A stretch of 60,318 nucleotides of DNA, counting the filler. It is 3 parts of 3 records of this genome, joined end to end, with 100 filler letters (N's around TTAATTAATTAA, not from the genome) between each part and the next. Parts side by side here need not be neighbours in the genome. Positions count along the whole stretch, not along the records: positions 1 to 28,936 come from SRR31156797_3462; 2 more parts are not named here. One strand, given 5' to 3'. The notes beneath the pieces are model-generated. The model saw only the letters and a list, made by a program, of their open reading frames with translations, did not search any database and was not told the DNA's origin. Positions 10,657 through 53,761 of this stretch are shown here, piece after piece; positions within the stretch are counted from its first letter, which is position 1, and each line of letters starts with the position of its first letter. A program made the translations under genes and the position numbers.

Positions 10657-10701
10657 CGGTGAAATAAAATGCGTTTTAATGCATTTTTATTGACTGTTAG
10701 C
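10652..10701. repeat. GCTAAC...GTTAGC imperfect palindrome (attC-like)
   Basis: GCTAACGGT pairs with ACTGTTAGC; inner ATAAAATGCGTT/AATGCATTTTTAT; upstream stop codon lies in TAAC. Confidence 0.55.
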
Positions 10702-10785
10702 TACTCTTCATTTGACATTAACTCCATTTAATACTATCTTACATATAGCATAAGACCTTATCTTAGGTATAGTTTGATTACTCAG

Positions 10786-10812
10786 GCCTCGCATTAGTGC
10801 GGGGCTTTTTTT
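10786..10812 (+). terminator. Intrinsic terminator ending the early/replication operon
   Basis: GCCTCGCA-TTAG-TGCGGGGC then T7. Confidence 0.8.
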
Positions 10813-11004
10813 GTTTTGTGCATCTAAGCTATTTGTAAGGGTAATATTCTCTCCATCTTTCAACTAAATATTTAGTTCTTTTTTGAAGCTGTAAATCCTA
10901 GCGCCTCGTTAGGGTAATTTTACTTTACGTAATATCCACTATCCATAAACTTGGCTCCGCCGTTCTTACTGCCCCTTCCCCCTCTAACCCCAAATTATTA
11001 ATTT

Positions 11005-11418
11005 TTTTGTAATTTGTAATTATTAATATTTAAAAGGGTGAGAAACAACAAAAAGGGACAGTTACAAAAGTGTTACAAAAATATTTCTGTTCTGTAATTT
11101 TAGTAAAAAAGTAATCTTATTTAGACTAATTTAAAGAAGCAAAACACCACTTTACAAAATTACAATTTGAGCAATGTTTTTGTAAGTATTGGGATTCAGT
11201 AGGTTACAAAACGCAATTTTGGCCTTACAAAATTTTGTAATCGTGTATAATTCAGACTATCAATAAGCTACAAATTATAAAATGCGATTTTTACAAAAAT
11301 GTCCTGTTTTCAGACAGAATTTAAAGTGAGGAGAAAAATAGGGACTGTTGAAAAAGTGTCCTGTTTTTGGTGATTATTGTTAACTATTTTGTCTGGCAAA
11401 GAGACAGATTTTTTGTAA
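11005..11418. repeat. Cluster of TTACAAAA/TTTTGTAA repeats, putative replication origin
   Basis: About a dozen copies in both orientations in AT-rich non-coding DNA downstream of the replication genes. Confidence 0.6.
11357..11391 (+). promoter_or_regulatory. Putative phage late promoter, copy 1
   Basis: TGTCCTGTTT...CTATTTTG. Confidence 0.5.
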
Positions 11419-12899: not shown

Positions 12900-12935
12900 T
12901 GTCCTTTTTCCACAATAGGCAATGCGTTTGATTTG
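12900..12935 (+). promoter_or_regulatory. Putative phage late promoter, copy 2
   Basis: TGTCCTTTTT...TTGATTTG. Confidence 0.55.
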
Positions 12936-12952
12936 TGGGAAAAAGGATAAGC

Positions 12953-14092
12953 ATGGCAAAATATGTTATCGAAATAGATGGTCCAATTTCCAATTGGTAC
13001 ATATCAAAGAACTTTATAAATAACGAGCTTAAAAAAGCTGGTAAAAACGAAGTTCAGGTTAATATTTCCTCTCTTGGTGGTAGCGTGGATCACGCTCTTG
13101 CCATTCATGAAGCATTTGTGGAGCATGGTAATGTAACGGCTGTACTTACAGGGTTTGTTGCATCTTCAGCAACAATTATTGCTATGGGTGCAAAGCACAT
13201 CCGCATGAGCGAAAATGCTTTCTTCCTGGTTCATAAAGTAATGACCTACGTTGATGAGTGGGGATTGATGAACGAAGATGACCTGGACAAGGTTATTGAA
13301 ACGCTGAATAAAGAGAAGGAAGAAAACAAGAAAATGGATTTAGTGATTGCGCGCATGTATGCCCGCAAAACAGGTAAGTCCATTGAAGATGTGCATAACC
13401 TTATGCAAAAAGATACCTGGTTAAATGCTGAAGAAACCGAAGACTGGGGATTCATTGATGAAGTTTACCAATTGGATGGTAACGATAAGCAAAATATTTG
13501 GGAAGATTCTAAACGAGTGGCAATGATTGCTGCAGCTGGACTTCCTTTACCAAATCGAAAAAAACAACCTAAATCCTTAAGTGAAAACAAAGAAGAGTTA
13601 GACTCTGCTTTATCTAATCTCAAATCTGAGATTATCAACGGTGTAAAAAAGCTCCTTCCCGGGCAAAAAGATAATTCAACTAAAAATTCAAAACAGATGA
13701 GCAAATCACAAAAACTAGCAGCTCTTGTTGCAGTTATGGCCGTCAATTCTATTGAAGTTGACGAACAACAAGGTGCTTATATCAATGCTGAACAGCTTGA
13801 GAAAATTAACCAGGAACTTGAAAAAGTAACTGCCTTACAAAACAAAGTTACCACTGCCGAAAATGAGCGTGACACGGTAATCAATGCACTTGATGACATT
13901 GATAAAACCGTTGCTGATGCCGAAGGGCATGAAGCGAAAATTAATGCTGTAAAAGAAAAACTGGCAGCTAAAGCGGGAACCCAGCCAACAGGTAATAGTG
14001 GTGGTGATGGTGGTAAAAACAATGCAGATGGTGTGGATTGGGATGCTATTAACGCATTGCCTCACAACCAGGCTGCAGATGAAATGTACTAA
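12953..14092 (+). CDS. ClpP-like head maturation protease with scaffold-like C-terminus
   Basis: ISSLGGSV, ASSATIIA, FLVHK, DTWLNAEET..WGFIDE; coiled-coil tail. Confidence 0.9.
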   Translation: MAKYVIEIDGPISNWYISKNFINNELKKAGKNEVQVNISSLGGSVDHALAIHEAFVEHGNVTAVLTGFVASSATIIAMGAKHIRMSENAFFLVHKVMTYVDEWGLMNEDDLDKVIETLNKEKEENKKMDLVIARMYARKTGKSIEDVHNLMQKDTWLNAEETEDWGFIDEVYQLDGNDKQNIWEDSKRVAMIAAAGLPLPNRKKQPKSLSENKEELDSALSNLKSEIINGVKKLLPGQKDNSTKNSKQMSKSQKLAALVAVMAVNSIEVDEQQGAYINAEQLEKINQELEKVTALQNKVTTAENERDTVINALDDIDKTVADAEGHEAKINAVKEKLAAKAGTQPTGNSGGDGGKNNADGVDWDAINALPHNQAADEMY

Positions 14093-14112: not shown

Positions 14113-15078
14113 ATGGATATAGCAAGTTTATTAACCGAATATGGAGCGTATTACTTACGTTCAGGTCAAAATACAAAGAGAGTTGTTCAATTATTATTGC
14201 AAGCTGTTGTAACAACTTCTTACATGACTCCAATTAAAACTGATGACACGGTTTATCAGATGAGTAATTCTTCATTGGAGGATATTGTTCAAGGTTTCCA
14301 ATCAACATACACTCCAACTGGTCAGGCAAAGTTTATTCCTAACGAGATTAAATTACGTCAATTCAAAGTCGATTTTGATGTTATTCCAGATAAAATATCT
14401 GCATCCTGGTTAGGTTTCCTTACTTCTGATGCAGTTGCACGTAAAGACTGGCCTTTAGTTCGTTGGCTAATTGAAAAACACATTATACCAAAAATTAAGC
14501 AACAAATGGAGCTTCAGGTATATGGAAAAGGAGTTTATTCTGCTCCAACCGATGGTGTTGCTCATGCTGCTTCAGATTCAATGGATGGATTGAAAACTAT
14601 CATCCAGGCTGGTGTTGATTCAGATGGAACCACAATGGGAATTATTAACCACGTTGGATCAATTGGAGCTTTAGATACAGCTACTTCATTTGACCAGATT
14701 GAAGCATTTGTGGATGGTATATCAGAAGAGTATCAAAACGTTCCTATGAATGTTTTTTGTGCTCCTGAATACAGAAAAGCTTTCTTACGAGATAAGAGAT
14801 CTAAAGGATTCTTTAATATCTCAGGATCTTCTGAAATAGATGCAAGTATTGATTTTACTCCTCAGCAATTAGTTGGATTGCCTTCTTTAAGTGGTGAAAC
14901 ATTCATGTTTGCTACGCCTAAGTCAAACATGTTCCATATTACCAAGAAAAGTAAAAATCAAACCAATTTTAAAATTGAAGAAAGTAAACGTACTGTCTCA
15001 ATTATGGCTGATTGGTGGGAAGCTATTGGCTTTGGTATTAACGAGGCAGTTTGGACTACTTTGGATGAAACTGCTTAA
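14113..15078 (+). CDS. Major capsid protein (probable)
   Basis: 321 aa directly after the protease; SMDGL, ADWWEAIGFG. Confidence 0.78.
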   Translation: MDIASLLTEYGAYYLRSGQNTKRVVQLLLQAVVTTSYMTPIKTDDTVYQMSNSSLEDIVQGFQSTYTPTGQAKFIPNEIKLRQFKVDFDVIPDKISASWLGFLTSDAVARKDWPLVRWLIEKHIIPKIKQQMELQVYGKGVYSAPTDGVAHAASDSMDGLKTIIQAGVDSDGTTMGIINHVGSIGALDTATSFDQIEAFVDGISEEYQNVPMNVFCAPEYRKAFLRDKRSKGFFNISGSSEIDASIDFTPQQLVGLPSLSGETFMFATPKSNMFHITKKSKNQTNFKIEESKRTVSIMADWWEAIGFGINEAVWTTLDETA

Positions 15079-15122
15079 TCATTAACGTGGGGCGCTTTTG
15101 CGCTCCTTAAAGCTTTCGTAAA

Positions 15123-15680
15123 ATGGAAAATGTAAACCTGCAAAATATAGATAAGAACCTTCCAGGAGGTGCCAACATGGGTGGTATACCTCAAAAAATA
15201 TATTTTGCTTATTGGAAGGATGTGGCCAGCTGGCCTACTGAACCTGATGTTTCTTCTCCTATTGAGTTAGAAGCATTGGCTACCTTAACCGGAGAAATTA
15301 CCATGAACTCTGGTACCAACTTCTTTGAGATGTACTTAACGGATGATACCGGAGAGTTGACATTTGAAAGTGTTGGCGAAAAGGATGGTAAAAGTTGGGT
15401 TATTAAGCTTACTATTTTTCACCCAGGACTGCAAAAGAGAATCTTAGGTTTTATCAATGCAGCTAAGAATGATAATCTTGTTTGGGGTGTACCTGATAAC
15501 AATGGTAATCAATTCTTAATGGGTGATGCGCTTCGACCTGCAACATATGAAGATGCAGGTGACGGTGTTGGTACAGGTAAAGAAACGGCCTCACGCCCAG
15601 GTGTTGGAATGGTATTTACCTTTAAAACTAAGAATCTTTACCATTACGATGGTTCATTCCCACTAACCCCTGCTGTTTAA
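15123..15680 (+). CDS. Virion structural protein, possibly tail tube
   Basis: Follows capsid; NMGGI...FTFK, beta-rich acidic protein. Confidence 0.55.
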   Translation: MENVNLQNIDKNLPGGANMGGIPQKIYFAYWKDVASWPTEPDVSSPIELEALATLTGEITMNSGTNFFEMYLTDDTGELTFESVGEKDGKSWVIKLTIFHPGLQKRILGFINAAKNDNLVWGVPDNNGNQFLMGDALRPATYEDAGDGVGTGKETASRPGVGMVFTFKTKNLYHYDGSFPLTPAV

Positions 15681-15696
15681 TTTAAAATTGTATATC

Positions 15697-15885
15697 ATGG
15701 CTAATTGGAAAGATAAATACAAATTAGTAAAAGTAAAGCCTGGTAAAATTCATACCAGGTTGTTTGGAGTAATCGATTTTTCAAACGATAATGTACCGGT
15801 TGAAAAATGCGATAAACTTGTAGAATCAGGTTTTCCTTATTTAGAACCTGTTGGCGGTAAAACCACCGTTCCTGAAAAGAAATAG
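15697..15885 (+). CDS. Small phage hypothetical protein
   Basis: GVIDFS...LVESGFPYL; last gene before a terminator. Confidence 0.65.
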   Translation: MANWKDKYKLVKVKPGKIHTRLFGVIDFSNDNVPVEKCDKLVESGFPYLEPVGGKTTVPEKK

Positions 15886-15920
15886 GTTTTTGGTTCATAA
15901 TTTAATAGGTTTAATGTTTG

Positions 15921-15947
15921 GCCTCGCAGCAATTGCGGGGCTTTTTT
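15921..15947 (+). terminator. Intrinsic terminator
   Basis: GCCTCGCA...TGCGGGGC then T6; same stem as the terminator at 10786. Confidence 0.8.
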
Positions 15948-15960
15948 ATTATCCTTTTCT

Positions 15961-16006
15961 GTCGCAGCCTCTGTCCTTTTTTAGGCAGTTGCCTTTTTTC
16001 ACTTTG
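15961..16006 (+). promoter_or_regulatory. Putative phage late promoter, copy 3
   Basis: GTCGCA-N4-CTGTCCTTTTT...TCACTTTG. Confidence 0.55.
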
Positions 16007-16048
16007 CAGTCTCAAACGATAATTCATTATTAACCAATTCAAATTAAA

Positions 16049-16822
16049 ATGAATGAAGAAGTAAAAAAAGAGGTTATTGCTTTTCTGCAGACGGAAAATC
16101 CTTCTCCGGAAAAAGCTGCAGAATTAATATTAAAGCTTGGTACCAATAAACACGAAGCGCAGGTTTATATGGCTTCACCTGGAAGGTACCTGATGCAAAT
16201 GCGCTGGACATTAGCTAAATCAATAGGTATTGGCCTGCCTGATTTCCAAAGAGGTTACTTTACTGATATCCGCAAAAAAGGCGAAGAGGACTGGCCTGAG
16301 GTAATCAAGCGCATTAAAGCTGAATTGCCAATCATCCAGAACGATCGTATTGCAGCTCAAAAGGCACTGGTTGAATTAGGTGATGCTAACGACGAAGAAA
16401 CCAAGGCCAAAGCCAAAGAGCTTGGCGAAATAGCTGAAGCTTTGGGAGTACGTCATCAATTACTCCAGGAATCCAAAGAGCTGTATTTCGAATCCGAAGG
16501 TAAAATCATTCCTAATGAGGAAGAATTGTTCCCGGAAGAAGAGGAAGGCGAAAACCCTAAAGAGGATGAAGATCCAAAGTATGAGTGGGTCAATGACAAG
16601 GTAAAAGCCATGCAGGTTAAAAAGAACCTGGAATCATCTTTAGCTAAGGATAGAAACCGATTGAAATATCAATCGCCTTCTGCCAAAGATAAAGAAGAGA
16701 ACCCAATTCCTGAAGGACCTGAAAAGGATAAAATTGAGGCTCGCATTGCTCTAAAGGAAAAAGAGTACAATGCCATCCTTGATTTCTTAAAACCGGATAA
16801 TGACACTGATAAAACCGAGTAG
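16049..16822 (+). CDS. Phage hypothetical protein (helical)
   Basis: 257-aa ORF, first gene of the packaging operon. Confidence 0.75.
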   Translation: MNEEVKKEVIAFLQTENPSPEKAAELILKLGTNKHEAQVYMASPGRYLMQMRWTLAKSIGIGLPDFQRGYFTDIRKKGEEDWPEVIKRIKAELPIIQNDRIAAQKALVELGDANDEETKAKAKELGEIAEALGVRHQLLQESKELYFESEGKIIPNEEELFPEEEEGENPKEDEDPKYEWVNDKVKAMQVKKNLESSLAKDRNRLKYQSPSAKDKEENPIPEGPEKDKIEARIALKEKEYNAILDFLKPDNDTDKTE

Positions 16823-17390
16823 TGTTGTCGGGGTTAGCAAAATAGAAGGTGTGCAGAATGACTGCACACCTTCTTTAAACATTCAGAATGGTGAAAATTC
16901 GTTTGTTAATTCAGATCAGAAATTGCATAAAGTCATTGGTGTACTTAGAGCCGGAGAAACCAAACATTTATGGTCTCGCGGTACTTTTAATAGCATTAGA
17001 TTGCTTATGTGTATTGTTGGTCAGGTTGGCGCTTGTGATATTTTTATAAGTACTTATAGCATTTCTGAAAAGTCTGTAAGGCAGTTGAAGATTGCCCAGG
17101 AAAAAGGACTGATTAAGGATATTCGTTTTTTGATTGATAACCGTGTCCGGAGCATGAGCCCGAAACCTTTCCAGGCATTATGCGGATACTTTCCGGAAAT
17201 GGTCAGAACCACATCGATACACGCAAAAGTTACCACCATTAAAAATGATGATTGGTCAATATCCATCATCAGCAGTATGAATGCTACCGACAACAATAAA
17301 ATTGAGCGGATTGTAATCAGTCCCGATCCGGCAGTGTTTGAATTCGACAATCAGGTATTACACGATGAATTTTACAGAGGAGCAAATTAG
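16800..17390 (+). CDS. Phospholipase D-like (HKD) domain protein
   Basis: ISTYSIS, IHAKV...IISSMNAT. Confidence 0.75.
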   Translation: MTLIKPSSVVGVSKIEGVQNDCTPSLNIQNGENSFVNSDQKLHKVIGVLRAGETKHLWSRGTFNSIRLLMCIVGQVGACDIFISTYSISEKSVRQLKIAQEKGLIKDIRFLIDNRVRSMSPKPFQALCGYFPEMVRTTSIHAKVTTIKNDDWSISIISSMNATDNNKIERIVISPDPAVFEFDNQVLHDEFYRGAN

Positions 17391-17634
17391 TACGATTGAA
17401 GAAATGGCGGAGCTGTTCTATTCTCCTGAAGAAATAGCCATTAATATAGAAGTTGAGCCGGATGATTTTAGTGTTCATGTTAAAGCTAAAACAGGAAACG
17501 GCTATAAAGCTTTTATGCGTGGCTGGTTAAAAGGCGATATTGCTTTGCGCAATTCCATTGCTAAAGCTGCAGCCAATGGCAGTAATCCTGCCCAACAAAT
17601 GATGTTGAACTTTCAAAACAAGGTGATTATATGA
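17365..17634 (+). CDS. Small HTH-like packaging-module protein (terminase small subunit candidate)
   Basis: FYSPEEIAINI...AKAAANGSNPAQ, two genes upstream of terL. Confidence 0.55.
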   Translation: MNFTEEQISTIEEMAELFYSPEEIAINIEVEPDDFSVHVKAKTGNGYKAFMRGWLKGDIALRNSIAKAAANGSNPAQQMMLNFQNKVII

Positions 17635-18209
17635 GCCGTAAAGCCCTGGAAGATCAAAACTATGAACTGATTAAGGATGCGATTCTCAATCCTGAAGAAT
17701 CTCAATTGCCTGCACATTTACAATTTGCGCTGGATAGAACCGTTTCGGCTTCCAAGATCCTGGATAAAAATCCGGTTCAAAAACATGCGGTTGCCATTCT
17801 CCTGGAGAAATATCCCAACATCTCACGAGCACAAGCATATGAGGACTGCAAACGAGCTATTCGCTTGTTTAATTCCATACACACTTTCGATTACGATTAC
17901 TGGCAACATTGGCTACTGCAGGATATTGCAGAGCATATTCAGGCATCTAAAACAAAAGGCGATCTGAAAGCCTGGGCAATGGGTCATAAGAATTTACTGC
18001 AGGCCATTGGTGAGCGTCCGGAGACGGAAATTGATCCTAAGCTAATTCAGAAACATACTAATGTATTTGCAATTCAGGTTAACAATCAAACGATTAACAT
18101 CGATCAGAAAGCACTTGAAAAATTACCGCCTGAAGCACAACAGATGCTTGTAGCATTAATGAATCAACCAATTGAAGATAACAGAGCTGAAGAAATCTTT
18201 AATTCATGA
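17631..18209 (+). CDS. Hypothetical protein (terminase small subunit candidate)
   Basis: Directly upstream of terL with ATGA coupling; ISRAQAYED. Confidence 0.6.
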   Translation: MSRKALEDQNYELIKDAILNPEESQLPAHLQFALDRTVSASKILDKNPVQKHAVAILLEKYPNISRAQAYEDCKRAIRLFNSIHTFDYDYWQHWLLQDIAEHIQASKTKGDLKAWAMGHKNLLQAIGERPETEIDPKLIQKHTNVFAIQVNNQTINIDQKALEKLPPEAQQMLVALMNQPIEDNRAEEIFNS

Positions 18210-19942
18210 TAAGACAGAATATTAATCTTAATCCATCGCAGCTTCAGAATATACTGCTTTTCCCAAAACGAAAAGTATCTGTAAAAGGTCGTGGAGTTGG
18301 TAAATCCTACGAAACAGGTAATGATATAGACCAGGTAAATAAGCAAATGCCCAGAGCTTGTATGGCCATTACCGGAACTACCTTTGGTCAGCTGCTTACC
18401 CGTACATTACCTTCGGCTTTCAAATACCTTCATGAATTAGGCTATGTTCAGCATGAATCTAAAAAGAAGCCAGGGAATTATGTAATTGGTCGAAAACCTC
18501 CGGAGCATTTTATCAGGCCTTACGAAGAAATCATGAAGCATGATAATATTATCAGCTTCAGCGGTGGAAATGCAGGTATTCTTTTATCGCAGGACCGTGC
18601 CGGATCAGCTCGTGGTGCCAACGTAGATTTTGAACTTTTAGATGAAGCTTTAACCATCAATAAAGAACGCTACGATGAAGAAACTTCGCCCACTAACCGA
18701 GGTAATGAAGAAAAGTGGGGAACTCGTTCCAGGAACCCGGTTCCCATGCATCATGGTTTTCATTATTTGACATCAATGCCATTTACCAATGAGCAAAAGT
18801 GGATATTGGATTATGCCAAGTATTATGAAGAGGAGAGAGGCGTTAGAATCCTTGAAATATGGAATCGTATAGTACAGCTTCAGCTGCAGCTAATCGATGC
18901 TAAAAAGGATAATAACCTCAAGCTATTTAAAGATATTTGGAATGAGACAGTTCGACTAAAGGCACAAATAACACCATTTGTAAGCAAAGATGGTTTATTG
19001 TTTACATTGGCCAATGCCCTGGATAATATCGATAATGTAGGCTTCTCATACATTATGCGTGAGTATGAAAAACAAACCATGCTTACCTTTCTGATTGAGA
19101 TTATGAATATGGTGCTGGATGTAGTAGAGGATTGCTACTATGCCATTGATTCAGCTAAGCACATCTATTACAATGCCTATAATGACTCTTTTTTACGTGA
19201 TTATGCTGAAGATACCAATTGGGATTTTAATAAGCTCGGTACTCCGGATAGTCGCTTTGATTTGGACTGCGATCCTAAGAAGCCTTTGGAGGTGTGCCCG
19301 GATTGGGGTGCAAAGATTGCCTTATTCTCTATAGGTCAGGAACGTAATTTCGATTTTGTCAGTAAGTTGGCCATACCTACCGATAACTTTATCAATGAGT
19401 TTTTTGTCAAACCGGATCAGTCTCCAGGTGTCATGATCAACGACCTGGTAGATCAGTTCTGTAAATACTATGAATACCATGGATGCAAAGAAATCCTTTA
19501 CTATCACGATAAATACGGCGACCACAAACAGCCGAATGCTAAGAACTCAACAACGTACAATCAGCAAGCAATTGAGCGCTTTAGAAAGAACAACTGGCAT
19601 GTTACCAGTATGCAGCACAAAGGTATGGAACCACCACAGCACGATAAGTACTTACTCTGGGCAAACATTCTCAAAAAAGATTCAGAAGATAAATATTACC
19701 CCAATGTTCGGTTTAATGGCCAGAAGTGCAAGTATACGCTCATCTCGATGAACAATACCAAGGTAATCGATAAGGACGGCAAGTTTCAAAAGGATAAGAG
19801 CAGTGAACGCAAGAACTCCATACTACCAGAGGAAGCCACACACTTTGGTGATGCTGCAGACAAACGTATCTGGACTAAGTATAATAAGTTATTGACTAAA
19901 CGAGGAAGTATTTTTGTGAGTGCTAGGTTTGGTAACAATTAA
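18206..19942 (+). CDS. terL: Terminase large subunit
   Basis: Walker A GRGVGKS, Walker B LLDEA, nuclease residues DWG and HFGDAAD. Confidence 0.9.
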   Translation: MIRQNINLNPSQLQNILLFPKRKVSVKGRGVGKSYETGNDIDQVNKQMPRACMAITGTTFGQLLTRTLPSAFKYLHELGYVQHESKKKPGNYVIGRKPPEHFIRPYEEIMKHDNIISFSGGNAGILLSQDRAGSARGANVDFELLDEALTINKERYDEETSPTNRGNEEKWGTRSRNPVPMHHGFHYLTSMPFTNEQKWILDYAKYYEEERGVRILEIWNRIVQLQLQLIDAKKDNNLKLFKDIWNETVRLKAQITPFVSKDGLLFTLANALDNIDNVGFSYIMREYEKQTMLTFLIEIMNMVLDVVEDCYYAIDSAKHIYYNAYNDSFLRDYAEDTNWDFNKLGTPDSRFDLDCDPKKPLEVCPDWGAKIALFSIGQERNFDFVSKLAIPTDNFINEFFVKPDQSPGVMINDLVDQFCKYYEYHGCKEILYYHDKYGDHKQPNAKNSTTYNQQAIERFRKNNWHVTSMQHKGMEPPQHDKYLLWANILKKDSEDKYYPNVRFNGQKCKYTLISMNNTKVIDKDGKFQKDKSSERKNSILPEEATHFGDAADKRIWTKYNKLLTKRGSIFVSARFGNN

Positions 19943-19981
19943 ATAAGGTATCAACCTCACTACATGATGTTGATGGAATAG

Positions 19982-20007
19982 GACTGCCTTTGAGCAGTCT
20001 TTTTTTT
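19982..20007 (+). terminator. Intrinsic terminator after terL
   Basis: GACTGC-CTTTGA-GCAGTC then T8. Confidence 0.75.
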
Positions 20008-20254
20008 GCTCTAATCTATGGTATCAGTCAGGAAACTGCCTGATGTATTTGTATGGACTGCCTTGGCAGTTTTGCCCCTGCCTACTTATCATATTTCCTT
20101 AAAAAATGCCTTGGGGCAGCTGCCCCGCTCTGTAGGGCGGGATCGGGGTTCTTATCGTGAAACAGTATTTTAAATTGAGTTTTTGCTCAATTAAAAATCT
20201 GTGTATCTGATGTTTAAAAAAAAATAAACTGGATGAACTTTTTACACTTTATTA

Positions 20255-20286
20255 TTTGGCGGTTATGCCTATTTTTAGTATATTTA
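20255..20286 (+). promoter_or_regulatory. Bacteroidota primary-sigma promoter with operator-like GGCGGTTATGCC
   Basis: TTTG-N20-TATATTTA. Confidence 0.6.
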
Positions 20287-20354
20287 AGTATTGAAAGTCA
20301 GATAAATAGAGGCTTTTAATGATGTAATATTGTTTAATTAAATCATTTTCGCAG

Positions 20355-20774
20355 ATGACAGCAAGAAAAGAAAAAGCGCAGGTTTTGACACCTGAAAAAA
20401 TGCAGGAAGTTTTAAAGCAAAACGAAACTTTAATTAAGAGAATTGAAGAGCTTGAAAAAAAGCAAACAGAGAAGCCGAAAACCTACGAGGAGCAAATCCA
20501 ATTTTTTGAGTATCAGCAGCAGATTATTGGACATTTGGAAAGGTTCGAAAAAAAGAAAGTAGACATTGAAGAAGCTTTAAAAGTGGTAAAGGATAAAACC
20601 GAAAACGGGGATTTTGAAGCTAAAGTATTTGCATTGACTTTGACCTCTACCAATGGGGAGAAAAAGACCGTTTTTAATATTACCAATCCTTTGATAATTG
20701 GTAAGACTTTAGAATCTGTTACGGGTGAGATCAGCGACAAAATAAGCGACCTTAAAAAAGAGCTTACTATCTAA
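20355..20774 (+). CDS. Coiled-coil hypothetical protein
   Basis: 139 aa, first gene of the island; FNITNPLII. Confidence 0.75.
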   Translation: MTARKEKAQVLTPEKMQEVLKQNETLIKRIEELEKKQTEKPKTYEEQIQFFEYQQQIIGHLERFEKKKVDIEEALKVVKDKTENGDFEAKVFALTLTSTNGEKKTVFNITNPLIIGKTLESVTGEISDKISDLKKELTI

Positions 20775-20850
20775 AAAACAAAAGCCCAAAGGGCTGCAAC
20801 TCTTTGGGCTTTGGATTCAATTTTTAAACTAAAAACTAAATCATTTTCGC
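20773..20850 (-). ncRNA. Predicted SymR-like antisense RNA
   Basis: Minus-strand promoter ATTG-N20-TATCTTTA (20887-20856) and minus-strand terminator hairpin AAAGCCCAAA/TTTGGGCTTT with U-tail. Confidence 0.55.
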
Positions 20851-21129
20851 ATGTGTAAAGATACGGTAAAACGGATTGAAAAACAATTAAAAGTGACCAG
20901 GCAGCCACAAGGCAAAAGCTACGTTCCTGGGTTTAGATTGGCAGGCAAATACATGAACGACCTAGGATTTAAAGAGGGTGATCATGTGGATATGGTAGCC
21001 AATCAAGAGCTTATAATCATAAAAAAGCATTCAGATACAGCTCCGCAACTTTCTGAAATGGTGAATAAAAACCCTGCTTTACTCTCCTTGATAAGTGCTT
21101 TTGAATTGGTGCCCGATGAAGGAGTTTAA
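20851..21129 (+). CDS. SymE-family (AbrB-fold) type I toxin-like protein
   Basis: VPGFRLAGKYMNDLGFKEGDHVDM..NQELIII matches the SymE pattern PxxxLxGxWLxxxGF. Confidence 0.75.
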   Translation: MCKDTVKRIEKQLKVTRQPQGKSYVPGFRLAGKYMNDLGFKEGDHVDMVANQELIIIKKHSDTAPQLSEMVNKNPALLSLISAFELVPDEGV

Positions 21130-21853
21130 CAAACTCTTTTCAAAACTTGCCTACCGTCATGATTATATGACTTTGTTTGATGATTTTTTGACGCTTTCCC
21201 TTTGCGCTTTTGGTATGGGTAGGTATGAAAAAGAATATTTGCAAACATTAGAACCTTACAGCAAAGAAGAAATAAACATTTTCCCTCAATTGTTGGGGGA
21301 GCTTGTGAACTACTACACATTAAAAAGTTCCTCTGGTGGATGGGTTGACGGTTTAGGCGAATTTTTTGAAGAACATAATGGCAAGTTTGGCAGAGATGCA
21401 CGGGGGCAATTCTTTACACCTCCGCACCTGTGCGACATGATGGCACGAATGCAAGAACCTTGCAAAGGAAAGATAAACGACCCAGCCGCCGGAAGTGGGC
21501 GGTGCTTAATTGCGGTTGACAGGTTGGACCCTCAAAACCGATATGATAATTTTTATATAGCGGTGGACGTTGACCCTCGATGCGTAAAAATGTGCGCTAT
21601 TAATATGATGCTTTACGGCATGCGTGGCGCTGTTATACATGCTAATTCTTTATCCTTAGAAATATTTGGAGGTTATAGAGTTTACATGCCCGATACAGGT
21701 TTAGGCATAGTTAAATTGAATGAATCAGAGTGTTATCAGTACATGTTTGAACCCAAAGAAAAGGAAGAGAAAAAACATGTACATGTTTCTACACCAACTC
21801 AACCACAGCGAACCGCAGAGCAATTAAAACTATTTGAAATTTTGAACGCATGA
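21116..21853 (+). CDS. N-6 DNA methylase (HsdM-like) protein without NPPF/Y motif
   Basis: GQFFTP, DPAAGSG, VDVDPRCVKMCAINM, HANSL. Confidence 0.8.
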   Translation: MKEFNKLFSKLAYRHDYMTLFDDFLTLSLCAFGMGRYEKEYLQTLEPYSKEEINIFPQLLGELVNYYTLKSSSGGWVDGLGEFFEEHNGKFGRDARGQFFTPPHLCDMMARMQEPCKGKINDPAAGSGRCLIAVDRLDPQNRYDNFYIAVDVDPRCVKMCAINMMLYGMRGAVIHANSLSLEIFGGYRVYMPDTGLGIVKLNESECYQYMFEPKEKEEKKHVHVSTPTQPQRTAEQLKLFEILNA

Positions 21854-22191
21854 CAGCAAAAGAACAACGATATCAAGAAAATAGAGATACACTAAAAGCC
21901 CTAAGTAAAACAGCTAAAAAGTTGATGGAATTGGGCGATTTTACAACCATTAATGAAGCCATTGTAAACGGCATATATAAAGCCGATAACCCCAATATAA
22001 GAGAGTTTAAAACCTTTAATCAATGGAAGGATGAAGGAATGAAAATTAAGAAGGGTTCGCGTGGTTTTGTGGTTTGGGGCAAACCAAAGAAGAATCAAAC
22101 CGAAGAAGCCGACAACGAAGAAAAAGACGAGTTTAAATACTGGCCAATGTGTTATTTGTTTTCTAACCTGCAGGTCGAAAAAGCGGAGTAA
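21850..22191 (+). CDS. ArdC-like N-terminal ssDNA-binding domain protein
   Basis: FKTFNQWKDEGMKIKKGSRGFVVW ... YLFSNLQVE. Confidence 0.8.
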   Translation: MTAKEQRYQENRDTLKALSKTAKKLMELGDFTTINEAIVNGIYKADNPNIREFKTFNQWKDEGMKIKKGSRGFVVWGKPKKNQTEEADNEEKDEFKYWPMCYLFSNLQVEKAE

Positions 22192-22428
22192 ATGTATATT
22201 TATCATAAGTAAGGGCGCTCTTTTGGGGCGACCCTCCGCTGCGCTCCGGGCAATAAGGTATTGTTGAATAAATTGACAGAGGCATAGACATTCGGGCGCA
22301 GCCCAAATACCCGTGTTATGCGTCAATTTAATCACAATGAGGTCCGTTTATTTTTCTTCTCCAACTGCCCGCCATTCCTGCGTTTTAGCTTTTGGATAAA
22401 AAAAAGTTTGAAAAAACATTAAAATAAA

Positions 22429-22460
22429 TTTGGCGGTTACGCCAATGTAGTATATATTTG
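22429..22460 (+). promoter_or_regulatory. Consensus Bacteroidota promoter with operator-like GGCGGTTACGCC
   Basis: TTTG-N20-TATATTTG, a perfect -33/-7 match. Confidence 0.75.
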
Positions 22461-22525
22461 TAATACAATATTTCAATAAGGCCTACACACCTGGGGCCAA
22501 CATCAGGTGTCTAAAAATAAATAAC

Positions 22526-22918
22526 ATGAAAACTTTAAAAGAAAACACTACAACTTTTTTAAACGAGGTTAAATCAGTATTAGATTTAGCAACATGGGAT
22601 TTTCAAGCTTGTAACCCTAGAGCTAATTACGATGGTTGCGAAAAAGCAACTTCTTATCTTGACGGACAAAGATGGTCTATTAAAAAAATCAAACCTTTAT
22701 TAGAAGAAAATTGGGACGTTATTGTAGAGAAAATTAGAGAAGCAAGAAAAGATAACCTTGTTTATTTTACAGAAGAAGAAAAAGCAGAAATAGCTGCAAA
22801 AACAATAGCTAACGAATTAGCATTTGCAAGAATTGCACCTTATTCATGGAATAGTCGTTTTGACAGACACGGAGATAATGCCTGGTATATTGACGAAACA
22901 GTAACTTTTTATATATAA
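22526..22918 (+). CDS. Hypothetical protein, anti-defence candidate
   Basis: 130 aa, first gene after the consensus promoter. Confidence 0.7.
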   Translation: MKTLKENTTTFLNEVKSVLDLATWDFQACNPRANYDGCEKATSYLDGQRWSIKKIKPLLEENWDVIVEKIREARKDNLVYFTEEEKAEIAAKTIANELAFARIAPYSWNSRFDRHGDNAWYIDETVTFYI

Positions 22919-23457
22919 TGAAACGAAACTACCCACTTTTTACAATTGATAGGAGCAAACACAGCTCCTATCCTTTTGATTATATCACATGCTACGATCG
23001 CACGGTTGGTTTTATTGCACGTGTGGTTCATTTTACAAACGATATTCAATATCATGAATATCTGAATAGAATTGCTGAACATGAAGATAGTAAGGAATTA
23101 AGCACAACTCTTAAGCTAAAAAAAGGAGGGCTTGTATTGGTTGTGGATGATTTTTTGTATCAATTCGATTGGACATCTAAAAATCTTAACAGGGTTCAGA
23201 CCTTATTAAAAAAAGGATTTAAAAAATACATGCATGCCGAAGTGGATCGTACACCAACGGATAATGATTTAGGTATTGATGATCAAATTAAACAGCAAGA
23301 GGAAACAATAGCCATGGCAAAGGCTAATTATGAATCTTTGGTAGAACGTTCTTTAGGCGATAAGAAAATAGCCGATTATCAGATAGCTCTTGCGGAAGCT
23401 ACGCTGGACACTTTAAAAGCTTTTCGCGACAATCAGAAATTTATAAATCTCAATTAA
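22918..23457 (+). CDS. Hypothetical protein, anti-defence candidate
   Basis: 179 aa, TAATG coupling. Confidence 0.7.
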   Translation: MKRNYPLFTIDRSKHSSYPFDYITCYDRTVGFIARVVHFTNDIQYHEYLNRIAEHEDSKELSTTLKLKKGGLVLVVDDFLYQFDWTSKNLNRVQTLLKKGFKKYMHAEVDRTPTDNDLGIDDQIKQQEETIAMAKANYESLVERSLGDKKIADYQIALAEATLDTLKAFRDNQKFINLN

Positions 23458-23459
23458 CC

Positions 23460-23663
23460 ATGAAAATTCAACTTCACGAACTCGTTGAAAAATACGATAT
23501 ACCTAAAGCCTGGTTAGCAGAAATAACTGGCTTTAACCGTAGGCAAGTAAGTAATTGGGTAATGCAGCCTGATAAAACACCTATTCCTGAAGCTAAAAAG
23601 ATTATGGTACAGGAAAGGCTAAGAGAGTTAGGCGAAGTATTACGAAATATAGAATTAAAGTAA
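23460..23663 (+). CDS. Small HTH protein (Aca-like position)
   Basis: IPKAWLAEITGFNRRQVSNWV XRE-like HTH, last gene of the operon. Confidence 0.75.
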   Translation: MKIQLHELVEKYDIPKAWLAEITGFNRRQVSNWVMQPDKTPIPEAKKIMVQERLRELGEVLRNIELK

Positions 23664-23672
23664 ATCGCTGCC

Positions 23673-23718
23673 GTCGCACGGCTGTCCTTTTTCTCCAACG
23701 ACATTAAACCTTCATTTG
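23673..23718 (+). promoter_or_regulatory. Putative phage late promoter, copy 4
   Basis: GTCGCA-N3-CTGTCCTTTTT...TTCATTTG. Confidence 0.55.
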
Positions 23719-23742
23719 TAACAAACAAATGGAGGTTTTTTT
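23706..23742 (+). terminator. Terminator closing the early island
   Basis: AAACCTTCATTTGT/ACAAATGGAGGTTT plus T-run. Confidence 0.6.
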
Positions 23743-24009
23743 ATGCACAGACATGAAGTTTTAGAAGCACTCGATTATAAGACCGATGGTCATGATAAGC
23801 CGGTTACTTTTTCTATTAAAGTACGCCTGAAGGATGGTACCTTAAAGTTTATTGCAAAAGGTCATGCTTGTGGTGTTAAAGGCAATATGGCTGCTAATCG
23901 ATTGCGTGGTGTTCAGGAAGTAGACGAAAAGGGCGAAAAGGTAAGCCATCCTACACCTATCAGCATAGACAGAATTATAGAGTTCAACGGCAAAAAAGTA
24001 TACATGTAA
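23743..24009 (+). CDS. Small phage protein preceding portal
   Basis: Ends IDRIIEFNGKKVY; TAATG-coupled to portal. Confidence 0.7.
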   Translation: MHRHEVLEALDYKTDGHDKPVTFSIKVRLKDGTLKFIAKGHACGVKGNMAANRLRGVQEVDEKGEKVSHPTPISIDRIIEFNGKKVYM

Positions 24010-25364
24010 TGGCAGTTGACGCTCTATTTAATAATAAAGGGATTCCTTTAATGGCCAGCGGTAAAACATTTATGATGGACACCGCCGGAGCGCCTGCAGT
24101 CAATCCTAAAAGCATAACGCAGGTATCGCCCGAGTTGGATGATACTGTTTCGGTAGGTAACTTGAAGGTGGCCAGCTGGGGCAGTGGTAATTCATTTCCT
24201 TCCGATGCAGAGGAATTGATCGGTAAAACGGGCGTACTTAATACCGGGCTTCGCTTTATTCAGCGTGTGGTAATAGGTCAGGGCATATTCCCATGTCAGG
24301 TAAGCGGATATGATGATAAAGGAAACGAGAAGCTTGAGGTTGTCGATAATCCTGAAATTACCAAGCTTTTAAACGGTCGAATGATTCGCCGTTATCTGGC
24401 TAATTCTACTCGCGACTATTTTAAGTTTGGACAAGCATTTCCGGAGTTTATTTTTACTGCAGACGGAAAAAAGGTTCATGGTATTGATGTAAAAAACGCA
24501 TTGTATTCCCGTAACCTGGAGAAAAAGAATGGTGTGATACCTGGTATTGTGGTTTCCGGAAAATGGCCGGATACACCTTCTGATAGTAAAGACTATTCTG
24601 TTATCGATTTGCTGGATATGTACGATCCTTTCTTCGACATGGAAAGTATGCGCTTGCTAGGTAAAAGCACTGGCAAAACCGTTGCTTTTCCTTTGCGTGA
24701 TGAATGGTCCAACAATGAGTATCATCCTTTGCCAATTTGGTGGAGTGCCAAGCTTGCCGGATGGATTGATATTGCTCAAAAAGTTCCTGCCTTTTTATTA
24801 AAGATGTATGAGAATCAAATCAGCTTAAAATGGCACGTGCAGATTCCTTACGCTTATTGGGAAAAGAAATATCCGGAGAAAGATTTTAAATCCATCGAGG
24901 AAAGAAAAACAGCTATTCAGGCCGAAATGGATTTGATAGAGGAAAGCTTAACAGGTACTGAGAATGCCAATAAAGCGCTTTTCTCCATGTTCGAAATGAA
25001 TCCAAATGGAAAGGTTGAAGAGCAATGGATTATCACCGCTTTGGATGATAAGAGTAAGAATAGTGATCAGCTGATTACCTCAGCTGCAGCTAACTCCGAA
25101 ATCTGTTTTGCTTTAATGATCAATCCTAATGTATTTGGAGCCGGAATGCCAGGCGGAACTTACGCCGGAAATCAAGGCGGCTCCAATATTCGTGAAGCGT
25201 TTTTGGTGAATATTGCTTTAGCCTGGTTAGATCGGCAGGCGCTACTAGATCCTATTGAATTGATGCTGCAGTTCAATGGTCATGATAATGTGCAGCTGAG
25301 ATTCAGAAATACCATTTTAACAACGCTCGATACAGGAGCCGGAACCACTAATAATTTAGCCTGA
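24009..25364 (+). CDS. Portal protein (probable)
   Basis: 451 aa; WGSGNSFP, LTGTENANK, GGSNIREAF, LTTLD. Confidence 0.75.
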   Translation: MAVDALFNNKGIPLMASGKTFMMDTAGAPAVNPKSITQVSPELDDTVSVGNLKVASWGSGNSFPSDAEELIGKTGVLNTGLRFIQRVVIGQGIFPCQVSGYDDKGNEKLEVVDNPEITKLLNGRMIRRYLANSTRDYFKFGQAFPEFIFTADGKKVHGIDVKNALYSRNLEKKNGVIPGIVVSGKWPDTPSDSKDYSVIDLLDMYDPFFDMESMRLLGKSTGKTVAFPLRDEWSNNEYHPLPIWWSAKLAGWIDIAQKVPAFLLKMYENQISLKWHVQIPYAYWEKKYPEKDFKSIEERKTAIQAEMDLIEESLTGTENANKALFSMFEMNPNGKVEEQWIITALDDKSKNSDQLITSAAANSEICFALMINPNVFGAGMPGGTYAGNQGGSNIREAFLVNIALAWLDRQALLDPIELMLQFNGHDNVQLRFRNTILTTLDTGAGTTNNLA

Positions 25365-27791: not shown

Positions 27792-28109
27792 ATGAAAACA
27801 AGTCAAAATTTTGGACAGGCAATTACTGCGTTAAAAGAAGGAAAAAGAGTACAACGATCTGGTTGGAATGGCAAAGGAATGTTTGTTTTTATGCAGGTTC
27901 CTTCAGAGATTAAAAGTGAAATAGTACCCAAAATGACATCGTTGCCTCAGTCTGTAAAAGATGAATTTAATAAACGCTTTGAAAATGAGCAAATTGATGC
28001 TATTTATTATGATGATCAATTAGCCATTGTAAATCAAAGTAATTTAATATCAGGTTGGTCTCCCTCAGTAGCAGACAGTTTAGCCAACGATTGGATTATT
28101 CTTGATTAA
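27792..28109 (+). CDS. DUF2829 / Tad2-like anti-defence sponge protein
   Basis: NFGQAITALKEGKRVQRSGWNGKGMFV ... GWSPSVADSLANDW. Confidence 0.82.
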   Translation: MKTSQNFGQAITALKEGKRVQRSGWNGKGMFVFMQVPSEIKSEIVPKMTSLPQSVKDEFNKRFENEQIDAIYYDDQLAIVNQSNLISGWSPSVADSLANDWIILD

Positions 28110-28936: not shown

Positions 28937-29036
28937 NNNNNNNNNNNNNNNNNNNNNNNNNNNNNNNNNNNNNNNNNNNNTTAATTAATTAANNNNNNNN
29001 NNNNNNNNNNNNNNNNNNNNNNNNNNNNNNNNNNNN
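28937..29036. other. Artificial contig spacer
   Basis: N44-TTAATTAATTAA-N44. Confidence 0.98.
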
Positions 29037-50456: not shown

Positions 50457-50756
50457 ATGATCAAAAGAGACATTATTCTGGGAAGACTGGATGAACTGCT
50501 TCCGGAGTTGAAAAGGAGCTATAAGGTAAAGGAAATAGGCCTTTTTGGGTCGGTGGTAAGGAATGAATACAAAACCGGCAGCGATATTGACTTCCTTGTT
50601 GAGTTTGAGGAAGGTGCGGATCTTTTTGATCTCTCAGCCCTTGGAATTTTTCTTGAAGATGAGTTCGGTTCAAGGGCGGATATCGTCTCGAAACGTGCTG
50701 TAAGGGATGAATTGAAGAGCCGGATCTTTTCAGAAGTAGTTTATGCGCATGCATGA
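50457..50756 (+). CDS. Minimal nucleotidyltransferase (MNT antitoxin)
   Basis: GLFGSVVRNEYKTGSDIDFLVEF (GS-x10-DxD). Confidence 0.9.
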   Translation: MIKRDIILGRLDELLPELKRSYKVKEIGLFGSVVRNEYKTGSDIDFLVEFEEGADLFDLSALGIFLEDEFGSRADIVSKRAVRDELKSRIFSEVVYAHA

Positions 50757-50766
50757 GGTGGTTTTC

Positions 50767-51105
50767 ATGCGTGAGTACAGGTTGTTTTTGACTGACATTA
50801 TTGAAGCGATTGATGAGATTGAGGAGTTTACTTCAGGAATGGACTTCACTGAATTTCTAAACGACAGGAAAACCAGGAAGGCAGTTGTGAAGAATATCGA
50901 AATCATTGGGGAAACCGCTAAGAATGTGCCGGATGGCATAAAAGTAAATTATCCTGATATTCCCTGGCGAGTAATTGCCGGTATGAGAGATCGATTAGCT
51001 CATGGATATTTTGGAATCTATTAGGGAACCGTGTGGGATGTTGTTGGCAATCGCCTGATTGATTTGAGGGATTCCATTCGGGCAATTCTGCTTGAGATCG
51101 ATTGA
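50767..51105 (+). pseudogene. HEPN/DUF86 RNase toxin interrupted by in-frame TAG (51022-51024); pseudogene or amber readthrough
   Basis: GAGGTG SD; IIGE, IPWRVIAGMRDRLAHGYFG; family-like GTVWDVVGNRLIDL continues after TAG to TGA 51105. Confidence 0.75.
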
Positions 51106-51389
51106 GCAGGACAAAAATTGACCTATCCCATCGGGAATAGAACGGATATTTCTGACTTCAAAGAACATCTTCTAAATTCAACCCTGTTCCCTATAAGTAA
51201 CCTCGACATTGATGATATCAAATTTAAAAACAATTGTTTTATCAATTATCCAAATTATCCATATATGGGTTCATTACTGGCAGATATTTTTGCGGGAATG
51301 ATCAGTGTTTTATTTTTTGTCCATTAAATCCAATTATAGTAGATTTTGCCCGGCAATACTTAAATATTATTGCTTACACAATTATTGTT

Positions 51390-52814: not shown

Positions 52815-53761
52815 TATCCTTTTTATGTAAAGGTTATTTGTTCTGCGGATACTGCTGTCCTATATATCGTAAACTTATGCCAGGTTTGCTAAGATCAAGG
52901 CCAAAGAATGCAGGTCTTTTATTCTTCAATGATGAACCTCACCGTTTTTTCAGGGGTGCACAGATAGACGTTGTTGAGTTTGAGGATGAAGTAGGGGATA
53001 ATTTTACAGAACGGATATTCACAGGTCCCTTAAGGCAGCAGATAATATCTGTTCTTTCATATGTAAGGAATAATGTTCTTGTAGAAAATGTCCGGAAGCT
53101 TCCCGGTCAAGCAGAAGCACTACGTTTTTTCAATTATCCCTATGAAGCTTTTGAAGAAGCACTTGTCAATGCGGTTTATCATAAAAGCTATGAGATACAT
53201 GAGCCTGTTGAAGTAAGGATCTACCCTGACAGAATCGAGATACTAAGCTATCCGGGCCCACTTCCTCCTCTTAATAAAGATAATCTTATGGATGAGAAGA
53301 TATCATCAAGAAGATACAGGAACCGTATAATAGGGGATTTCCTTAAGGAACTGCATTTGACAGAGGGAAGAAACACTGGATTTCGAAAGATAAGAAAGGT
53401 TCTTATGAATAATGGTTCCCCTAAACCTATTTTTAAAACGGATGATGAACGAAGCTTTTTCCTGACTGTTCTGAAGATTCATCCCGAGGCCCAAGTTGAG
53501 GCCCAAGTTGAGGGCCGGTTAGAACCCACAGATACACAGATAAAGATATTATCCGGGTGTACCGCTGGTCCGAAGTCTAAAAGGGAGATTGCCGAGATGC
53601 TGGGACATTCGACGGTTTCGGGGAGTATTAAGAAAGCCATGACAGAACTGATAGACCATGGCTATCTGGACAATACCATACCTGATAAACCAAGAAGCAA
53701 GCTTCAGAAATACAGGATTACGGAGAGGGGAATAGAGTTTCTTAAGAGAAGAGTTGAATGA
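52811..53761 (+). pseudogene. 5'-truncated ATP-binding regulator (RecG-C/HATPase_c_4 plus C-terminal wHTH)
   Basis: Homology starts abruptly at PKNAGLLFF; EEALVNAVYHKSY, YRNR.IGDFLKEL.LTEGRNTG, IPDKPRSKLQKY; no AlbA-like N-terminus. Confidence 0.6.

Follow-up and report, generated by a model that had tools for sequence, protein, structure and literature searches.

Why do seven small genes stand between the terminase and portal genes of a phage, and what do they do there? The question is raised by the stretch of DNA analysed here (the window; 60,318 nt, filler included), which consists of three contigs joined end to end. Positions 1 to about 28936 are the phage contig, and its phage genes are on the + strand, as are the features given below unless stated otherwise. 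The phage is a member of a temperate Bacteroidota siphophage family that is related to the Duneviridae. A preliminary description of the same DNA had taken the seven genes for a counter-defence island that enters the cell first and is expressed immediately. Its gene count was borne out, with seven small + strand genes between terminase and portal at 20355-20774, 20851-21129, 21095/21116-21853, 21850-22191, 22526-22918, 22918-23457 and 23460-23663. Comparison with relatives shows that the interval between the genes for the large terminase subunit (TerL) and the portal protein is a hypervariable slot for accessory genes (a moron hotspot), reaching from the TerL stop codon to the late promoter. 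The description of the window's insert as an accessory island with plasmid-type establishment genes is supported.

A variable slot between the terminase and portal genes

Searches with TerL gave 53 loci, 4 of them viral and 49 from genomes (Marinilabiliales, Bacteroidales), among which L001 and L005 are one element taken from two collections. Both slot borders could be placed in 13 elements, the window included. In five of these, the distance from the TerL gene to the 88-aa gene that precedes the portal gene is short, at 179 (L040), 282 (L010), 291 (L047), 300 (L009) and 320 bp (L003); it is 3801 bp in the window, and 4515 (L032), 5118 (L002), 6255 (L042, where the portal match spans residues 4-89 only), 6362 (L006), 6488 (L033) and 9409 bp (L048) in others. 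L005 has an interval of about 10 kb, its portal gene lying just past the 10-kb flank. Since five relatives have so little DNA at this place, the seven genes of the window are an insertion into a conserved junction of TerL, late promoter, 88-aa gene and portal. Insertion between genes that are adjacent in relatives, with promoter-like and terminator-like signals of its own, is what marks a moron or accessory-gene hotspot. On a tree of the TerL proteins of the 13 elements, the presence of an island needs at least three changes, of which well-supported branches force two, and its clustering does not exceed that of shuffled labels.

In 14 more loci, no portal homologue was found within 10 kb after TerL, and the remaining loci end too early after TerL for the interval to be judged. 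An integrase gene follows TerL in L035, and host-like genes follow it directly in L038 and L049. The loci without a portal gene within 10 kb may mark a prophage end after TerL; L005, however, has its portal gene just beyond that flank. In several metagenome-assembled genomes, this phage family is represented by three to five separate TerL loci, many of which lie at the end of a contig (L014/L020/L026; L016/L023/L029/L044/L046; L027/L028/L039/L042; L017/L025/L050). This pattern points to bins of mixed strains or to genomes with multiple related prophages.

The left border of the slot is the TerL-type gene (18206-19942), recognised by a Walker-A-like GRGVGKS motif and by annotated homologues. 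Its match to Terminase_6N (E 0.0018) is below the Pfam cut-off; it is 31% identical to genes called 'terminase large subunit' in Microcystis phages (96% coverage, E 2e-58) and 49-91% identical across the 53 loci. The right border (23670-23692) is formed by a short hairpin and then the late-type motif, TGTCCTTTTT (23683-23692). Beyond it come the 88-aa gene (23743-24009), which always stands just before the portal gene and is syntenic with it in 10 loci, and the portal gene itself (24009-25364). Scans of family libraries gave no sequence-family match for the product of 24009-25364. Its AlphaFold model (9 relatives) is poor, with a mean pLDDT of 53.3, and Foldseek returned 23 matches to it at E ≤ 0.001; all those listed are portal or neck entries (TM about 0.3), from HK97, GTA, P23-45/G20c, 812, lambda, T5 and T4. 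We accept the protein as the portal, with the caveat of a low-confidence model. Sequence searches of the PDB with TerL and portal, by single sequence and by profile, found chance-level matches only, and an NCBIfam scan gave no match for 16 of 17 proteins.

The preliminary description also held that the late motif resumes at 23683, and an exact copy of TGTCCTTTTT does stand there. Further exact copies are at 12900 and 15972, all three intergenic and on the + strand. The motif recurs at syntenic places in relatives; of the 10 loci with the 88-aa gene, 8 have it 40-60 nt 5' of that gene, and neither L032 nor L033 has an exact copy.

Within the slot, the two host-type promoters placed earlier at 20255 and 22429 hold up as predicted promoter-like sites, P1 and P2. 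The 15-nt word TTTGGCGGTTAYGCC occurs exactly twice in the window, at these two positions (chance mean 0.11), with a TAnnTTT(G/A) box downstream of both copies; the two sites are paralogous. P1 (20255-20286) is made up of TTTG at 20255-20258 and TATATTTA at 20279-20286, with an imperfect dyad at 20256-20271. P2 (22429-22460) has TTTG at 22429-22432, N21 and TATATTTG at 22453-22460. It is intergenic, 66 nt 5' of the ATG at 22526, and its dyad TTGGCGGTTACGCCAA at 22430-22445 (TTGGCG-GTTA-CGCCAA) is perfect and overlaps the -33 element. Although P2 is one of two full matches to TTTG-N17-23-TAnnTTTG in the window, 4.75 are expected by chance, and the count of two is therefore not significant by itself. 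We take the architecture of P1 and P2 to fit the Bacteroidetes housekeeping-promoter consensus; a scan for E. coli-type (sigma-70) promoters gave no enrichment (33 found vs 26.4 expected).

The real support for these putative promoters is conservation in relatives. P1 is kept 5' of the first cassette gene in five of them, in the form AAACTGGATGAAC, ATTTG, 12-14 nt of variable sequence and TTAGTATATTTAAGTATTGAAAG, and is followed by a common leader, TAAATCATTT(T)CGCA, where the encoded proteins are only 62-84% identical. At the place equivalent to P2, L006 and L007 have different dyads. The earlier statement that the island is bounded by terminators was correct in part. A terminator-like hairpin with a T-run follows TerL (19980-20009; a scan match with 8 pairs and then TTTTTTGC) and a hairpin also follows the first gene of the island, but downstream of the last gene there is a weak 5-bp hairpin only, and the terminator scan found no + strand terminator after 22191.

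What relatives carry in the slot was scanned with Pfam and PADLOC in 74 slot open reading frames (ORFs), 136 ORFs after TerL in 14 long loci and 39 selected proteins. L005, a prophage of Labilibacter sediminis, has genes for a TIR-TPR protein and a 1054-aa SIR2-APAZ-pAgo fusion (15023-21635; PADLOC pAgo E = 0 over the full model), and these adjoin the same four-gene module that opens the island of the window. Other recognisable cargo comprises AriA/AriB (PARIS) in L013, type IIG restriction-modification (R-M) in L018 and L036, full-length HsdM with HsdS (type I) in L037, Dcm with Vsr in L014 and L030, GmrSD-like NsnA/PD-T4-2 in L023 and L030, PDC-S15 in L030, and AbiH with an LmuA-like protease in L033. 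Besides these, there are an ImmA-type M78 peptidase with DUF4411 in L006, MNT-HEPN in L039, and HigB-type toxins in L036 and L037, accompanied by a helix-turn-helix (HTH) gene in L036 and an M78-HTH gene in L037. RadC-JAB genes occur in 13 loci and are often followed by a GP88-family gene or a short HsdM-like gene. A comparison of this interval in related prophages had been suggested as a check on the counter-defence idea; it upheld a variable insertion slot, but one whose cargo is mainly defence, not counter-defence.

The two cassettes of the window

The island of the window consists of cassette A (genes 1 to 4, 20355-22191), which is the four-gene module, and cassette B (22526-23663). Gene 1 (20355-20774) encodes a coiled-coil-like protein of 139 aa that belongs to no Pfam, PHROG, NCBIfam or PADLOC family. 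It has 65 representative homologues, most of 126-199 aa, and a Pfam scan of 35 of them gave matches that were scattered and disagreed with one another, several of them to families of coiled coils. Together with homologues of genes 3 and 4, those of gene 1 are retained in L001/L005, L002, L006 and L007. Gene 2 (20851-21129) encodes a 92-aa AbrB/MazE/SymE-like swapped-hairpin protein, whose Pfam matches are below the cut-off for both MazE_antitoxin (E 0.0061) and SymE_toxin (E 0.0076; 16.8 bits vs a cut-off of 29). In its family, MazE_antitoxin is matched by seven of eight members (best E 9.5e-5) and SymE_toxin by five of eight (best E 0.0076); NCBIfam gave no match, and the family profile found nothing relevant in the PDB. 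Gene 2 is, as far as its sequence goes, an AbrB-type swapped-hairpin protein, an assignment that reaches clan level only. In L002 and L007, RadC-JAB takes its place.

Between genes 1 and 2 is a conserved hairpin (20781-20812) that can be read on both strands, with the stronger T-run on the minus strand. Its stem shows compensatory changes across five relatives, with either a SymE-like gene or RadC as gene 2, and its fold (z-score -3.89) is better than that of all 200 shuffles. The minus strand at 20769-20842 has a sub-threshold Rfam match to ctRNA_pGA1 (34 bits against a gathering score of 45), so that a small antisense RNA at this hairpin is possible. A SymR-like antisense RNA tied to the SymE-like gene was rejected as specific evidence, the hairpin preceding RadC as well in L002 and L007. 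Genes 1 and 2 also have a leader in common, AAATCATTTTCGCA (20338-20357 and 20834-20853).

Gene 3 (21116-21853; ATG at 21116, with the longest ORF starting from GTG at 21095) encodes a 245-aa HsdM-like protein with an S-adenosylmethionine (SAM)-binding domain. Its N6_Mtase match (E 1.9e-13) is confined to profile positions 8-117 of 311, and it also matches phrog_5696 (E 5.8e-36). Its family, with 77 homologues of 165-286 aa, is short and stable and keeps FDDFL, GQFFTP (motif X), DPxxGSGR (motif I) and D.D..C.KM..N, and the SAM-binding motif I (DPAAGSGR) and motif X are conserved across 39 aligned homologues. The catalytic motif IV, [NDS]PP[YFW], is present in none of the 77, and the consensus at that stretch reads GGYRVYLPETGLG. 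Searched against the PDB, the family profile aligned with HsdM chains over about residues 155-290 only, the part with motifs X, I and III. The AlphaFold model (pLDDT 89.4, pTM 0.83) has a helical N-terminal part, five Rossmann-like strands, a low-confidence linker at about residues 211-238 and a short terminal helix. Type I HsdM subunits are its best PDB folds, with about a quarter covered (target-normalised TM-score 0.18-0.26), and a BFVD fold search returned generic methyltransferase labels only. There is no HsdS or HsdR partner in the cassette, and neither the Pfam scan nor the model of gene 3 has an evident domain for binding DNA or RNA polymerase. Judged by its motifs, the family cannot be a conventional methylase.

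The C-terminus of the gene 3 product is QLKLFEILNA, that is, QLKLF and five residues beyond it. Past a variable linker, Q238, L241 and F242 reach 90% conservation or more in the family; the pattern Q[LM]x[LIM]F is found within the last 15 residues in 44 of the 77 homologues, and a looser form in 63. Three other families (0/65, 0/54 and 0/7; 126 proteins) never have the strict motif at their C-termini. The loose form ends 14 of 1802 ORFs in the window and the 53 loci, of which six are HsdM-like genes. Three more are an unrelated gene of 114-134 aa after RadC-GP88 (L019 16879-17223, L020 12310-12654 and L023 14360-14764), which ends in QLSLF, so that a clamp-binding-like tail recurs on an unrelated protein at an equivalent place. 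QL(S/D)LF is the C-terminal consensus of bacterial beta-clamp binders (PMC9690074; this source, like PMC7213743, PMC5512222, PMC11541004, PMC13551039 and PMC12867686 below, is cited from the part of its text that was available). By this sequence measure, the tail of gene 3 is a beta-sliding-clamp-binding-like pentapeptide, and the family probably carries a sliding-clamp tether. A single literature search on this subject found no methylase-like clamp binder.

Gene 4 (21850-22191) encodes a 113-aa protein with a single-stranded DNA (ssDNA)-binding domain of the ArdC-N type. It matches ArdcN above the cut-off (E 4.2e-7, 30.6 bits vs 22.6) over profile positions 43-108 of 123, and phrog_7245 'anti-restriction protein' (E 6.6e-6). 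Its homologues in L005, L006 and L007 match ArdcN as well, and that of L002 is just below the cut-off (21.8 bits). The metalloprotease domain is absent, there is no second Pfam domain in the 113 aa, and phmmer found nothing in the PDB.

The cargo had been described as a kind known from conjugative elements, and this is confirmed for the short HsdM-like family, which is found in 14 phage records and in 891 plasmid records (439 conjugative, 144 mobilizable and 308 non-mobilizable). On a Pantoea plasmid, the HsdM-like gene lies between the gene for a zincin-like metallopeptidase (ArdC-type) and UvrD/TraI genes; on a Bacteroides thetaiotaomicron plasmid, it is found among AbrB/MazE, HU, LPD28 and SSB genes, and its product ends in QLTFDF. 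Cultured phages have it too. Temperate Flavobacterium phage vB_FspS_laban6-1 carries a cassette (gp22-gp27) between TerL-like gp29 and portal-like gp20, on the opposite strand, with the annotations SymE family toxin, ssDNA-binding (ArdcN) and N-6 DNA methylase; the ArdC-N protein (gp26) is 44% and the HsdM-like protein 41% identical to those of the window, against 23% for TerL and 21% for the portal. Phage 6H has, in the same slot, an opposite-strand cassette (gp14-gp18) with SymE-family and DUF932 genes. The reversed orientation in both phages means that the cassette is a separate transcription unit. The main text of the laban6-1 paper (PMC7077304) does not contain the terms 'SymE', 'methylase' or 'ssDNA-binding'.

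Cassette B is lineage-specific cargo. Its first gene (22526-22918) is itself lineage-specific. The 130-aa product has no family, and neither the 53 loci nor the collections of phages and plasmids contain a relative. The second (22918-23457; 179 aa) belongs to a conserved unnamed family with 54 homologues, most of about 180 aa and 43-73% identical, and has a sub-threshold match to DUF1796 only. The third (23460-23663) encodes a 67-aa HTH-like protein with a weak Homeobox_KN match (E 0.002), which has homologues in L006 (70%) and L007 (64%), placed immediately ahead of the late promoter; it is a candidate regulator or repressor that may act on P1 and P2 via their dyads. Searches of the Protein Atlas with the 139-aa and 179-aa proteins gave unnamed clusters below 0.9 only. 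Among the labels given to the cargo beforehand, ArdC-N and HsdM-like thus stood, the latter for the first third of the profile, but the SymE toxin stays below cut-offs and the HTH protein has a weak match only. The genes at 20355, 22526 and 22918 had been offered as candidate new inhibitors; none has an informative family, and an inhibitor function is not inferable for them.

What the island may do

Our preferred reading, which we hold with somewhat better than even confidence, is that the window has an accessory slot with two cassettes and that cassette A is a plasmid-type module which aids establishment or hinders type I restriction. Both the slot and the independence of its cargo from the late operon have good support. 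The association of the module with ArdC, RadC, LPD and relaxase genes would fit such a role. ArdC of plasmid R388 counters type I HsdRMS, and its protease activity is not needed for this (PMC7213743); ArdC-N and RadC are recurrent domains in the 'polyvalent proteins' of invading elements, where such domains have been proposed to act early after DNA entry (PMC5512222). Each of the two cassettes would be under its own promoter-like site, P1 or P2. After entry or induction, cassette A would act on the element's own DNA in its single-stranded, gapped or freshly replicated state: the ArdC-N protein would coat ssDNA, the host clamp would bring the dead HsdM-like protein to primer-template junctions, and the two proteins together would hinder type I restriction or otherwise aid establishment. 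The terminal HTH protein would repress P1 and P2 via the dyad overlapping the -33 elements. The module, which is also common on conjugative plasmids, probably helps incoming DNA to survive or replicate, and an anti-defence role of the island is plausible. A bolder version would make the HsdM-like protein a clamp-tethered counter-restriction factor of Bacteroidota phages and plasmids, which on unmodified new DNA would join ArdC-N in shielding that DNA from type I R-M enzymes or in decoying them, or would sequester SAM locally, and the slot a combined exchange point for defence and counter-defence; we think this rather improbable.

Several observations weigh against an establishment module. A dsDNA phage exposes little ssDNA at entry, and the putative clamp binding is read from a motif of five residues, which in its strict form is imperfect or absent in 33 of the 77 homologues and is missing from the copy on the Pantoea plasmid. 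The dyad is imperfect at P1, which bears on the link to the HTH protein, the SymE-like label is below threshold, and TerL and portal were identified on weak or low-confidence evidence. The cargo of the slot in relatives is mostly defence genes, an association that speaks for a lysogen-protecting role. ArdC-N, moreover, is rare in phage-type polyvalent proteins (PMC5512222).

The genes might instead be lysogen-expressed morons that protect the host or prophage, form a toxin-antitoxin system or exclude superinfecting phages, and do not serve the phage's own infection. We regard this as unlikely, though by no means far-fetched. Expression in the lysogen is as compatible as early expression with host-type promoters that have terminators on either side, and morons classically have just this layout, a host-type promoter and terminator-like hairpins set among conserved late genes. 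Recognised defence genes occupy the slot in relatives (L005, L013, L018, L023, L030, L033, L036 and L037), and the AbrB/MazE/SymE-like gene 2 together with the leader hairpin, its minus-strand T-run and the sub-threshold ctRNA match would suit an antisense-controlled toxin; that same hairpin, however, is present where RadC replaces the SymE-like gene. In the window itself, six of the seven proteins have no PADLOC match and the seventh matches only the front of methyltransferase models. The HsdM-like protein cannot modify DNA as it stands, with the catalytic motif in 0 of 77 homologues and no HsdS or HsdR in the cassette, and the module is found on conjugative plasmids beside ArdC-type and relaxase genes, a context linked to the establishment of incoming DNA. 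The claim of the preliminary description that the island is the first-entering end of the genome, a counter-defence cassette expressed at once like the leading region of a conjugative plasmid, found no support, and we consider it quite improbable. In P22, SPP1 and lambda (pac/cos phages), the DNA beside the terminase genes is packaged first and ejected last, which the claim runs against, and headful phages are circularly permuted and have no fixed leading end. The type of cargo (ArdC-N, methylase-like, small HTH) and its distribution on plasmids do fit the analogy, as do promoter-like sites separate from the late motif. Anti-defence islands do exist in plasmid leading regions (PMC11541004), and the terminal HTH gene and promoter dyad resemble Aca-controlled anti-CRISPR operons (PMC13551039). 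Yet nothing links the interval to a genome end, and only a 6-bp dyad was seen, not a long hairpin of the ssDNA-promoter type. Nor is there a conserved orientation with respect to any direction of entry, since the cassettes of 6H and laban6-1 point the opposite way from the genes on either side.

Finally, the HsdM-like protein and the ssDNA binder could tie expression or replication to loaded clamps, as a coupling device for replication or late transcription and not for counter-defence. Sliding clamps are used in T4 late transcription, the clamp-binding-like motif at the C-terminus is conserved, and the module lies directly 5' of a conserved late promoter; the late activator of Mu likewise uses the beta clamp (PMC12867686). 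Nevertheless, five relatives without the module keep the late promoter and portal operon, and the module is thus dispensable for late expression. It is also common on plasmids, which have no late genes, and its HsdM-like protein is without an evident DNA- or RNA polymerase-binding domain. We judge a coupling device to be highly improbable.

The phage genome around the slot and known systems

Elsewhere on the phage contig are genes for a LuxR/sigma-like regulator and an HNH/sigma-r4 protein, a ClpP-type head maturation protease (12935-14092; CLP_protease E 3.9e-21, phrog_94 E 1.4e-38) and a PLD-like endonuclease (16800-17390; phrog_16945 E 1.3e-19, weak PLDc_2). The last of these lies 5' of the small and large terminase genes and is kept even in laban6-1 and 6H. 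Downstream of the portal follow DUF6712, holin and DUF5675 genes and, 3' of the lysis genes, a gene for a protein with a Tad2-like (Thoeris anti-defence 2) domain (27792-28109; E 2e-21), so that the phage has a recognised counter-defence family outside the island. A region of 710 nt without genes (10657-11366) is dense in TTACAAAA/TTTTGTAA repeats in both orientations and holds a 57-nt tandem pair with the late-motif variant TGTCCTGTTTT at its end; it is possibly an origin or a major control region. At 28937-29036, TTAATTAATTAA is flanked by two N runs, which mark a join of contigs, and genes past 29423 therefore need not neighbour the phage. Polysaccharide and CysNC genes are found beyond 29423. 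Also outside the phage contig are an MNT/HepT toxin-antitoxin pair (50457-51024) and then, at 51234-53761, a DUF234/ATPase_2/Mrr_cat protein and a HATPase_c_4/Fic-like_C protein.

Cargo hotspots of temperate phages and ArdC-type genes are already known, and published Duneviridae genomes show the cassette without comment. Within the limited literature searched, the definition of the slot, the finding that the 'N-6 DNA methylase' is not a conventional one and its clamp-binding-like tail appear to be new. With the TerL stop codon at one end and, ahead of the portal operon, TGTCCTTTTT at the other, the slot is easily recognised and can be mined for defence and counter-defence genes; it occurs across a widespread group of temperate Bacteroidota phages, cultured members included, with short pAgo, PARIS and R-M in relatives. 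The analysis also singles out a very common, unstudied protein family of plasmids and phages that databases call 'N-6 DNA methylase', for which a clamp tether would be a concrete hypothesis, cheap to examine in laban6-1 and the Flavobacterium that it infects. It further corrects the idea of first entry, which a place beside the terminase gene does not imply.

The HsdM-like protein shares with type I HsdM motif X, motif I and the helix-strand units that follow. In contrast to HsdM, it has 245 aa instead of about 500 and lacks NPPF/Y, the second Rossmann half, the C-terminal helical region and HsdS/HsdR neighbours, and it has a disordered tail with QLxLF. That conserved C-terminal Q-L-x-L-F behind a disordered linker is what would liken it to beta-clamp binders (QL[SD]LF), although five residues follow the motif in the window. 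As for the slot, with its defence and candidate counter-defence cargo, prophage defence hotspots, such as those of P2/P4, likewise combine a fixed position with interchangeable conflict genes. The anti-defence islands of plasmid leading regions (PMC11541004) do so too, but nothing marks the slot as a leading end.

Gene 4 has the same N-terminal ssDNA-binding domain, above the Pfam cut-off, as ArdC of the IncW/IncP plasmids R388 and pSa, from which it differs in its length of only 113 aa, in lacking the metalloprotease domain and in being phage-borne. In polyvalent proteins (PMC5512222), ArdC-N, RadC-JAB and adenine-methylase domains and LPD neighbours recur together, as here, whereas the slot has separate small genes in place of one giant protein and a methylase-like part that appears catalytically dead; the word 'clamp' does not occur in the part of that text available. 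A comparable setting is that of the Duneviridae phages laban6-1 and 6H. Their cassettes are on the strand opposite to the flanking genes, unlike that of the window, and their backbone proteins are 21-25% identical to those here; like the island of the window, they occupy the slot between a TerL-like gene and the pair of a small gene and the portal gene.

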